IMG/VR virus record: IMGVR_UViG_2879736954_000010
Source of the DNA: a virus
Taxonomy: Duplodnaviria > Heunggongvirae > Uroviricota > Caudoviricetes
DNA: 49,784 bases
Reading direction: 5' to 3' (one strand)
Shown here: one piece after another, positions 28,268 to 28,578 of the stretch
How positions within the stretch are numbered: position 1 is the stretch's first letter
Layout of the letters: each line of letters begins with the position of its first letter
Program-made: the position numbers and the translations under genes
The notes under the pieces: generated by a model
What the model saw: the letters and a program-made list of their open reading frames with translations, nothing else
Databases searched by the model: none
What the model was told of the DNA's origin: nothing

Positions 28268-28342
28268 GGAGCGGGCAGCGGGAATCGAACCCGCATCATC
28301 AGCTTGGAAGGCTGAGGTAATAGCCATTATACGATGCCCGCA
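28268..28342 (-). tRNA. tRNA-Gly (anticodon UCC)
   Basis: Reverse complement reads GCGGGCAUCGUAUAAUGGCUAUUACCUCAGCCUUCCAAGCUGAUGAUGCGGGUUCGAUUCCCGCUGCCCGCUCCA; cloverleaf with anticodon loop CUUCCAA; matches my recollection of E. coli glyT. Confidence 0.85.
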
Positions 28343-28345
28343 TAT

Positions 28346-28421
28346 GGTGCCGACTACCGGAATCGAACTGGTGACCTACTGATTACAAGTCAGTTGCTCT
28401 GCCTGCTGAGCTAAGTCGGCG
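28346..28421 (-). tRNA. tRNA-Thr (anticodon UGU)
   Basis: Reverse complement GCCGACUUAGCUCAGCAGGCAGAGCAACUGACUUGUAAUCAGUAGGUCACCAGUUCGAUUCCGGUAGUCGGCACCA; anticodon loop ACUUGUAAU. Confidence 0.8.
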
Positions 28422-28423
28422 CT

Positions 28424-28500
28424 GGCCCACCACCGAGGACTCGAACCTCGCACCGTCAACTTAGAAGGTTGATGCTCTATCCGGATGAGCTAGTGGTGGT
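28424..28500 (-). tRNA. tRNA-Arg (anticodon UCU)
   Basis: Reverse complement CCACCACUAGCUCAUCCGGAUAGAGCAUCAACCUUCUAAGUUGACGGUGCGAGGUUCGAGUCCUCGGUGGUGGGCCA; anticodon loop CUUCUAA; unusual C1-G72 start of acceptor stem. Confidence 0.7.
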
Positions 28501-28501
28501 T

Positions 28502-28578
28502 GGTGGCCCTTGCTGGACTTGAACCAGCGACCTGGCGATTATGAGTCGCTCGCTCTGACCAACTGAGCTAAAGGGCCG
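28502..28578 (-). tRNA. tRNA with CAU anticodon, ileX/ileZ-like (Ile2 or Met)
   Basis: Reverse complement GGCCCUUUAGCUCAGUUGGUCAGAGCGAGCGACUCAUAAUCGCCAGGUCGCUGGUUCAAGUCCAGCAAGGGCCACCA; very similar to E. coli ileX as I recall it. Confidence 0.8.

Follow-up and report, generated by a model that had tools for sequence, protein, structure and literature searches.

We describe an array of four transfer RNA (tRNA) genes in IMG/VR virus record IMGVR_UViG_2879736954_000010, a stretch of 49,784 nucleotides (nt) from a member of the Caudoviricetes that was analyzed over its whole length and that we call the window. The array spans positions 28267-28577 on the minus strand, in the 5' to 3' order Ile2(CAU), Arg(UCU), Thr(UGU), Gly(UCC), and lies between a gene for the antiterminator Q and the lysis genes of a lambda-like prophage. 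The most probable function of the array, with a probability of roughly 0.6, is the supply of scarce tRNAs that read A-ending codons, from an operon that would carry its own promoter and would also be reached by Q-dependent read-through. The array itself is of an ordinary kind, since lambdoid phages have been seen to carry tRNA genes between Q and the lysis genes ever since phage 21 and 933W were sequenced, and public genomes already include this exact array in annotated form. A sequence-only reading of the window had described much of this; it was largely right and incomplete.

Over the full length of the window ARAGORN calls exactly four tRNA genes, each on the minus strand: tRNA-Ile2 (CAU anticodon, of the lysidine type and homologous to ileZ/ileX) at 28501-28577, tRNA-Arg (UCU, with an argN-family body, hereafter slot 2) at 28423-28499, tRNA-Thr (UGU, thrU with the changes U16C and U20C) at 28345-28420 and tRNA-Gly (UCC, the sequence of host glyT) at 28267-28341. 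All four exceed the gathering score of 29 bits of the Rfam tRNA model RF00005, with 70.5, 56.4, 69.8 and 64.9 bits, respectively, and no other Rfam family passes its threshold anywhere in the window. Parsed arm by arm, each gene gives a regular cloverleaf with stems of 7/4/5/5 base pairs (bp) and an encoded CCA, and the spacers between the genes measure 1, 2 and 3 nt. The sequence-only reading had proposed the same genes in the same order, and ARAGORN and Rfam agree with it; its locus was correct and its coordinates, 28268-28578, were one base off. The array is a real set of tRNA genes and not a product of chance, because the same 451-bp segment is 100% identical in nine complete Escherichia coli chromosomes (CFSAN029787, for example) and is covered to at least 80% in 499 of 5,426 genomes, flanked by phage genes in every case. 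In E. coli genomes, the Prokaryotic Genome Annotation Pipeline (PGAP) annotates tRNA-Ile, -Arg, -Thr and -Gly between Q and a class II holin. The possibility that the segment is a host tRNA operon with host flanks, against which the genes had been claimed as phage-encoded, was ruled out by the phage genes on both sides and by a match to the host that is limited to the mature tRNAs.

The identity of each gene was established by comparison with host and phage tRNAs. The CAU gene, whose presence had been noted under its anticodon, can be specified as a lysidine-type Ile2 gene rather than a Met gene. Its sequence matches 933W ileZ at 74 of 77 positions, ileX at 69/77 and metT at 54/77, and its acceptor stem (GGCCCTT/AAGGGCC) forms C4-G69 and C5-G68 where metT has U4-A69 and A5-U68. 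TilS separates tRNA-Ile2 from tRNA-Met by precisely the pairs C4-G69 and C5-G68, a discrimination reportedly described by Ikeuchi and colleagues in 2005. These pairs and the likeness to ileX and ileZ argue for an AUA-reading Ile2, on which TilS would form lysidine; PGAP likewise labels the gene tRNA-Ile. Elongator or initiator Met was ruled out on the same two grounds, identity and acceptor-stem pairs.

The slot-2 gene matches 933W argN at 61/77 positions, host argU at 58/77 and argO at 46/77; its closest match (66/77) is the UUU-anticodon tRNA that occupies this slot in APEC O1. The gene carries A20 and C35, the ArgRS identity elements, and its stems are fully paired through compensatory changes relative to its relatives (A3-U70/G3-C70 and A51-U63/G51-C63). 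By these comparisons the gene belongs to the argN lineage of 933W, unlike host argU. The other two genes are host-like, as had been suggested: tRNA-Gly is identical to K-12 glyT at 75/75 positions, and tRNA-Thr matches thrU at 74/76, with U16C and U20C in the D loop as the sole differences and an identical anticodon arm. Among the matches listed, 106 of the 127 phage-borne Gly copies surveyed have the glyT sequence and 80 of 131 Thr copies match their host gene exactly. This likeness is confined to the mature sequences. Flanks and spacers differ, the flanks align to the thrU-tyrU-glyT-thrT locus with local scores at chance level only, tyrU is absent, and the spacers of 1, 2 and 3 nt compare with 8, 116 and 6 nt in the host operon. 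The proposed acquisition from a host tRNA cluster is therefore supported for the tRNA bodies and not for the operon context. Taken by sequence, the array is of mixed origin, with slots 1 and 2 homologous to ileZ and argN of Shiga toxin (Stx) phages and with host-like Thr and Gly.

Expression of the array would draw on two promoters. The segment from NinH through Q to the late promoter pR' and its terminator tR' (29294-28666) has 75.5% DNA identity to 933W, whose GenBank record annotates a putative pR', a qut site, a terminator and a putative tRNA promoter, pT; our comparisons with 933W use this annotation. The putative pR' of the window (28721-28748, minus strand; -35 TTTACG at 28748-28743, -10 TATTCT at 28726-28721) was assigned by homology, aligning column for column with the 933W element "pR'; putative late promoter", and was not picked up by the consensus promoter scan. 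The intrinsic terminator tR' (28661-28690, minus strand) reads AAACCCGCC-UCCG-GGCGGGUUU followed by a U-run; it forms a 9-bp GC-rich hairpin in the minimum-free-energy fold and is homologous to the first terminator annotated in 933W. The consensus terminator scan missed it because the U-run is partly paired in the stem. Since the array lies downstream of tR', polymerase modified by Q would read through into it. The second source is pT (28587-28615, minus strand), identified by the consensus scan, with a -35 TTGCAG at 28615-28610, a 17-nt spacer, a -10 TATTAT at 28592-28587 and the discriminator TCTGCCTCC. Its -10 ends 9 nt before the first base of tRNA-Ile2, with the GC-rich TCTGCCTCC between them; a GC-rich discriminator is typical of stable-RNA promoters. 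When the upstream sequences of all compared loci were reduced to less than 80% mutual identity, 17 variants remained, and 15 of these, including the 933W element "pT; putative tRNA promoter", carry TTGC and TAT.AT at a fixed distance from the tRNA 5' end, with spacer sequences that vary. This pattern is what a functional sigma-70 promoter would leave, and we infer the activity of pT from it. The late, Q-dependent transcription proposed by the sequence-only reading is thus borne out by the position of the array downstream of Q, pR' and tR', but expression is probably not solely Q-dependent, because a conserved sigma-70 promoter adjoins the first tRNA. A literature search for ileZ/argN and for the Ile-Arg-Thr-Gly tRNA combination found no matching paper in the collection searched.

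To compare codon usage, 32 open reading frames (ORFs) of the prophage region were set against 42 annotated K-12 genes and the 61 codons were ranked by phage/host ratio. The cognate codons of the array rank 3rd (AGA), 4th (ATA), 6th (ACA) and 8th (GGA), with enrichments of 2.0- to 4.4-fold, and the probability that four picked codons all fall within the top eight is about 1e-4. The highest ratio belongs to AGG, which the UCU-anticodon tRNA should also read by wobble. The sequence-only reading had named AGA and AUA as the rare codons served; both are over-used by the phage, and the Thr and Gly codons ACA and GGA are over-used likewise, so that all four cognate codons stand among the eight most over-used.

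We propose that the array would act as a compact four-gene tRNA operon inside the late-operon leader of a lambdoid prophage with a 933W-type Q. It would be transcribed from the sigma-70 promoter pT and, after induction, from pR' by Q-mediated read-through of tR'. RNase P would cut each 5' end of the precursor, host 3' exonucleases would trim the few extra bases, and host enzymes would mature and charge the products, TilS turning C34 of the CAU tRNA into lysidine so that it reads AUA. The result would be extra copies of scarce host tRNAs reading AUA, AGA (and AGG), ACA and GGA, and phage genes, as well as other foreign genes in the lysogen, would be spared translation stalls at AUA, AGA, ACA and GGA codons. 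Codon supplementation has also been proposed for the tRNAs downstream of Q in phage SfI, in which ACA is enriched (PMC3636060).

Several observations weigh against such a supply function. Enrichment is modest among the late structural genes that follow the array (ATA 6.1, AGA 4.0, ACA 10.9 and GGA 10.6 per thousand codons) and greater in the early genes, whose expression precedes the action of Q. CGG (2nd) and AGT (5th) are strongly enriched yet served by no tRNA of the array. The codon match is only a correlation, and any set of rare-codon tRNAs would fit horizontally acquired DNA; the host reference is limited to 42 K-12 genes, and the activity of pT is read from its conservation.

Comparison of the window with the corresponding module of APEC O1 gives 100% identity for Gly, 97.4% for Thr, 97.3% for the spacer between array and holin, 94.8% for Ile2, 92.6% for the holin and 85.7% for slot 2, with 74% in the pT region. 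On these figures slot 2 is the fast-diverging slot among relatives. That Gly and Thr copies are often host-identical while the pT region stands at 74% and slot 2 at 86% points to purifying selection on the array. Alternatively, the tRNAs might have been picked up by accident and persist as neutral passengers, conserved islands for module exchange with no decoding role. Homology with relatives does break just upstream of the array, at about 28594-28622, and different phages combine the tRNA-spacer-holin block with different Q modules, as expected of a recombination linker. Such a linker would not account for promoter hexamers kept amid diverged flanks, for stems held by compensatory changes in slot 2 and in a hairpin after tRNA-Gly (described below), for Gly and Thr genes that are near-invariant over more than 120 loci among the matches listed, or for anticodons that match over-used codons non-randomly, and we consider it very unlikely.

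The array shares its site with the ileZ-argN-argO genes that 933W carries upstream of stx2, as the sequence-only reading had recognized. Slots 1 and 2 are the homologues of ileZ (74/77) and of the argN body (61/77), and both phages have the order Q, pR'/tR', pT, tRNAs, terminator-like hairpin and late genes. Unlike 933W, the window has UCU instead of UCG as the slot-2 anticodon, lacks argO and has the host-like Thr(UGU) and Gly(UCC) in its place, leaves about 45 bp instead of about 330 bp between tR' and pT, and carries neither stx nor other cargo, a phage-21-type holin following after 292 nt. The Asn(GUU)-Thr(UGU) pair of phages 21, SfI and Sf6 similarly lies between a late promoter/terminator and a phage-21-type holin and includes Thr(UGU). 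The window differs in having no Asn gene and in having pT, whereas the phage 21 record annotates no separate tRNA promoter. The Thr genes are also unlike: that of phage 21 differs in its body and lacks the paired CNG motif in its anticodon stem, whereas that of the window is thrU with two D-loop changes. Compared with the E. coli thrU-tyrU-glyT-thrT-tufB operon, which shares the mature glyT (75/75) and thrU (74/76) sequences, the window lacks tyrU and thrT, has a 3-nt Thr-Gly spacer where the host has an 8-nt spacer, tyrU and a 116-nt spacer, and shows no homology in flanks or promoter. All four anticodons of the array recur in the tRNA cluster of T4 (Gln, Leu, Gly-UCC, Pro, Ser, Thr-UGU, Ile-CAU, Arg-UCU), and both sets have tightly packed genes, multimeric precursors (predicted for the array) and readers of A-ending codons. 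T4 differs in being virulent, with AT-rich DNA, eight tRNA genes that are not known to be host-identical and a different promoter context.

A search with the pattern of the Thr-Gly junction, which is phage-specific, matched at least 120 IMG/VR contigs; among species representatives, the junction occurs in E. coli, Shigella flexneri, Citrobacter braakii and Enterobacter hormaechei. With 20 fixed bases in 596 Gb, about one chance match is expected, and four matches in non-enterobacterial metagenome-assembled genomes (L134, L136, L141 and L142; L numbers label the related loci compared), whose surroundings are GC-rich and lack tRNAs, were dismissed as chance. Among the matches listed, 56 loci carry Ile2-Lys(UUU)-Thr-Gly, 32 the window's type Ile2-Arg(UCU)-Thr-Gly and 19 Thr-Gly alone, with a few loci for each rarer form. 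In the Thr-Gly-only arrays (L069, L035, L128, L056, L090, L073, L131), a TATTAT-like hexamer precedes a long hairpin, GGTTCCGAGGG...CCCGAGGAACC, which ends 3-6 nt before tRNA-Thr and in which the changes between variants appear to preserve pairing; these arrays look to bear a distinct leader structure.

A single slot-2 tRNA body bears the anticodon UCG in 933W, UCU in the window or UUU in other relatives. The slot-2 "Lys(UUU)" genes, found at L003 3224-3300 and, among the matches listed, at about 60 IMG/VR loci (L012 and L014, for example), have an argN-family body that matches the window's Arg at 66/77 positions and host lysT at 47/77. In these genes C33 replaces the near-universal U33, A51 and C63 are mismatched and the discriminator base is U73; by sequence they look like anticodon-switched tRNAs of the Arg lineage. 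Another slot-2 sub-family (L039, L046, L054, L066, L081, L083, L052, L099, L100) has anticodon loops of 5-6 nt (CCAGGT, CTTGGT, TTAAT, TTTAT, TAAAT) with intact acceptor, D and T arms, and is called ???, Leu, Stop or Phe by ARAGORN; these may be either decaying genes or tRNA-like RNAs with another role. Separately, the "tRNA-Val" that PGAP annotates at L002 3071-3141 (RMDEC332), which recurs in L113, has a glyT body with UAC in place of UCC, the substitution A38G and one nucleotide missing from the 3' acceptor strand, and is probably a damaged Gly gene and not a Val tRNA.

Thr(UGU) alone of the four array anticodons shares its identity with a host tRNA known to be targeted by a nuclease. The array, and chiefly its tRNA-Thr, might accordingly replace host tRNAs cut by the anti-phage nucleases PARIS AriB and P2 Old, with U16C and U20C conferring resistance, an explanation that we find doubtful but worth weighing. 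tRNA-Thr(UGU) is the prime target of P2-OLD, and the tRNA-Thr(UGU) of phage 21, which occupies the same post-Q place, is an experimentally established anti-P2-OLD tRNA that rescues OLD toxicity (PMC12445682). PARIS AriB cuts tRNA-Lys(UUU), Thr(UGU) and Asn(GUU) between positions 40 and 41, structure prediction sets D-loop position 16 against AriB, and U16 to C in E. coli tRNA-Lys, as in T5 tRNAs, "significantly impaired AriB cleavage" (PMC12409363). U16C, with U20C one of the only two changes that separate the window's Thr from thrU, is the most recurrent difference from thrU in the related loci (seven Thr haplotypes). Of 5,425 matching E. coli records, only 52 contain the C16/C20 allele, at 99% identity or more; in the other records, about 5,370, the best match to the window's allele is 97.4%, the level of the U16/U20 thrU. 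Sister arrays with Lys(UUU)-Thr or Asn(GUU)-Thr carry exactly the AriB target set, and G42U/U43C in three Thr haplotypes breaks the CNG motif and shortens the anticodon stem. The Thr alleles of L002 (3145-3220) and four other loci have G42U and U43C besides U16C and have lost the 3' CNG motif; CNG loss and a shortened anticodon stem are, reportedly, the features behind the resistance of phage tRNA-Thr to P2-OLD (PMC12445682).

The window's own allele fits this explanation less well. Its anticodon arm is that of the host, with the OLD CNG motifs (CUG and CAG) and the AriB site (UAAUC|A41) intact, and it should therefore stay OLD-sensitive by sequence; host thrU, when over-expressed, protected little or not at all against OLD (PMC12445682). 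The T5 tRNA-Lys, -Thr and -Asn that neutralize PARIS provide a parallel in the defence-target anticodon UGU and in the D-loop C16 shared with T5 tRNA-Lys, but they have cleavage-site changes at positions 39 and 41 that the window's Thr lacks. The effect of U16C stems from tRNA-Lys whereas the allele here is a tRNA-Thr, and few tRNA positions are under weaker constraint than 16 and 20, where changes would also be expected from neutral drift. Resistance by sequence is impossible for Gly, which is 100% host-identical, and no E. coli nuclease directed against Ile2, Arg(UCU) or Gly(UCC) is known to us. A counter-defence role of the Thr allele is a plausible, tentative addition to tRNA supply. More broadly, though we would give it no better than modest odds, the post-Q tRNA slot could be a swappable counter-defence cassette that tracks the targets of Toprim nucleases of rival mobile elements (Lys-UUU, Thr-UGU and Asn-GUU for AriB, Thr-UGU for P2 Old), in which the window's Thr would be AriB-resistant and the sister slot 2 would have been re-targeted from UCG through UCU to UUU as a Lys(UUU) decoder without AriB determinants. 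The sister slot-2 Lys(UUU) tRNAs have C16, G39-U40-U41 and C33.

On the flanks of the array, the genes are those of a lambdoid late region. Upstream on the same strand lie a replicative helicase, NinH (PF06322) and Q, a 933W-type antiterminator of 126 aa at 28777-29157 (minus strand) that matches Pfam PF06530 over its full length (E=4e-54); an identical gene in CFSAN029787 is labelled "antiterminator Q family protein" by PGAP. Downstream, the first lysis gene encodes a class II (phage 21 type) holin S at 27759-27974 (minus strand; PF04971, E=5.5e-35), followed by a 209-aa ORF, a lysozyme gene and an Rz gene. The 209-aa ORF (27126-27755, minus strand) has no Pfam match; its position is taken by a YdfR-family gene in APEC O1 and by nothing in RMDEC332, and looks like a variable moron slot within the lysis cassette.

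Between the array and the holin start lies a non-coding spacer of 292 nt (27975-28266, minus strand), delimited by the ORF list and searched with Rfam; its length is 288-294 nt in about 70 related loci. A toxin or other cargo was considered here and rejected: the spacer holds no credible ORF, only an implausible 59-aa GTG ORF, and no Rfam match at E<=1. No stx-like ORF comes after the array, in agreement with the earlier statement that no toxin-like ORF is present. In seven relatives (L020, L021, L029, L094, L103, L057, L032), a block of about 390 bp, larger in some, lies between Gly and the holin gene and stretches the spacer to about 680 nt. Its ORFs look spurious, and insertions of 390-2,800 nt after the array in some relatives contain no convincing ORFs; the 390-bp block may represent a small element, mobile or non-coding, at the place where Stx phages carry stx.

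Directly after tRNA-Gly, a conserved hairpin is predicted at 28215-28260 (minus strand). RNAalifold gives 17 pairs over eight variants, two of them with compensatory double changes and none broken; the hairpin also appears in the single-sequence fold, and the whole spacer has z = -4.1. At this position, other variants of the array carry a canonical terminator or hairpins unlike this one. The window's hairpin has no clean U-tract and, from these folds, is a candidate for a weak terminator, a 3'-end processing site or a stability element.

The prophage that carries the array is defective, lambda-like and damaged by insertion sequences (IS), because an IS truncates Rz and replaces about 2.5 kb. 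This IS3-family element of 1,264 bp (24866-26129; ORFs at 24908-25726 and 25762-26064, minus strand, HTH_Tnp_1 and rve) leaves an Rz of 139 aa that covers positions 1-104 of the 126 of the Pfam profile, also truncates the small-terminase gene, and stands for about 2.5 kb of CFSAN029787 comprising part of the small terminase, KilA-N, a RelE/ParD pair and the Rz 3' terminus. The early region is cut as well: its homology to CFSAN029787 ends at 31985, in the region of a DnaC-like gene, beside a second IS3-family transposase at 32387-33226. An inverted copy of the Rz-distal segment at 33244-33467 suggests IS-mediated rearrangement. Further along, the window holds fragments of a second, unrelated phage (34892-45638), split by another IS3-family transposase at 36082-36987. 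Among them are part of a Terminase_3 gene, genes for a portal (PF06381), a DUF2213 protein and a major capsid protein (PF09950), and a Mu-type transposase gene (44004-45638). A host DcuC-type transporter is found at 47250-48737.

The array and pT are undamaged in this prophage, in spite of its broken late operon, and match copies in other genomes with 100% identity. This could mean that the array is kept for the lysogen, expressed constitutively from the predicted pT for host translation of AT-rich acquired genes, and that any lytic role is secondary. A conserved sigma-70 promoter with a discriminator like those of stable-RNA promoters would suit such an element, and the conserved post-Gly hairpin could stop pT transcripts before the holin gene. 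We nevertheless hold it to be unlikely: the same arrays occur in the inducible sequenced phages vB_EcoS-689R5 and PhiR47_1 and so are not confined to domesticated remnants, the IS damage may simply be recent, and termination before the holin is only a candidate role for a hairpin without a clear U-tract.

These comparisons place the tRNA cassette of Stx phages as one state of a modular, self-promoted slot in prophages of E. coli, Shigella, Citrobacter and Enterobacter, whose contents vary between Arg and Lys in slot 2 and between argO and Thr-Gly in slot 3, or consist of Thr-Gly alone. The window's Thr(UGU) allele is a clean natural reagent for asking if a change at position 16 is enough for a second target tRNA to escape PARIS. 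An intact, self-promoted array in a wrecked prophage may give the lysogen a larger supply of rare tRNAs, which would bear on the translation of AT-rich acquired genes in pathogenic E. coli and Shigella.

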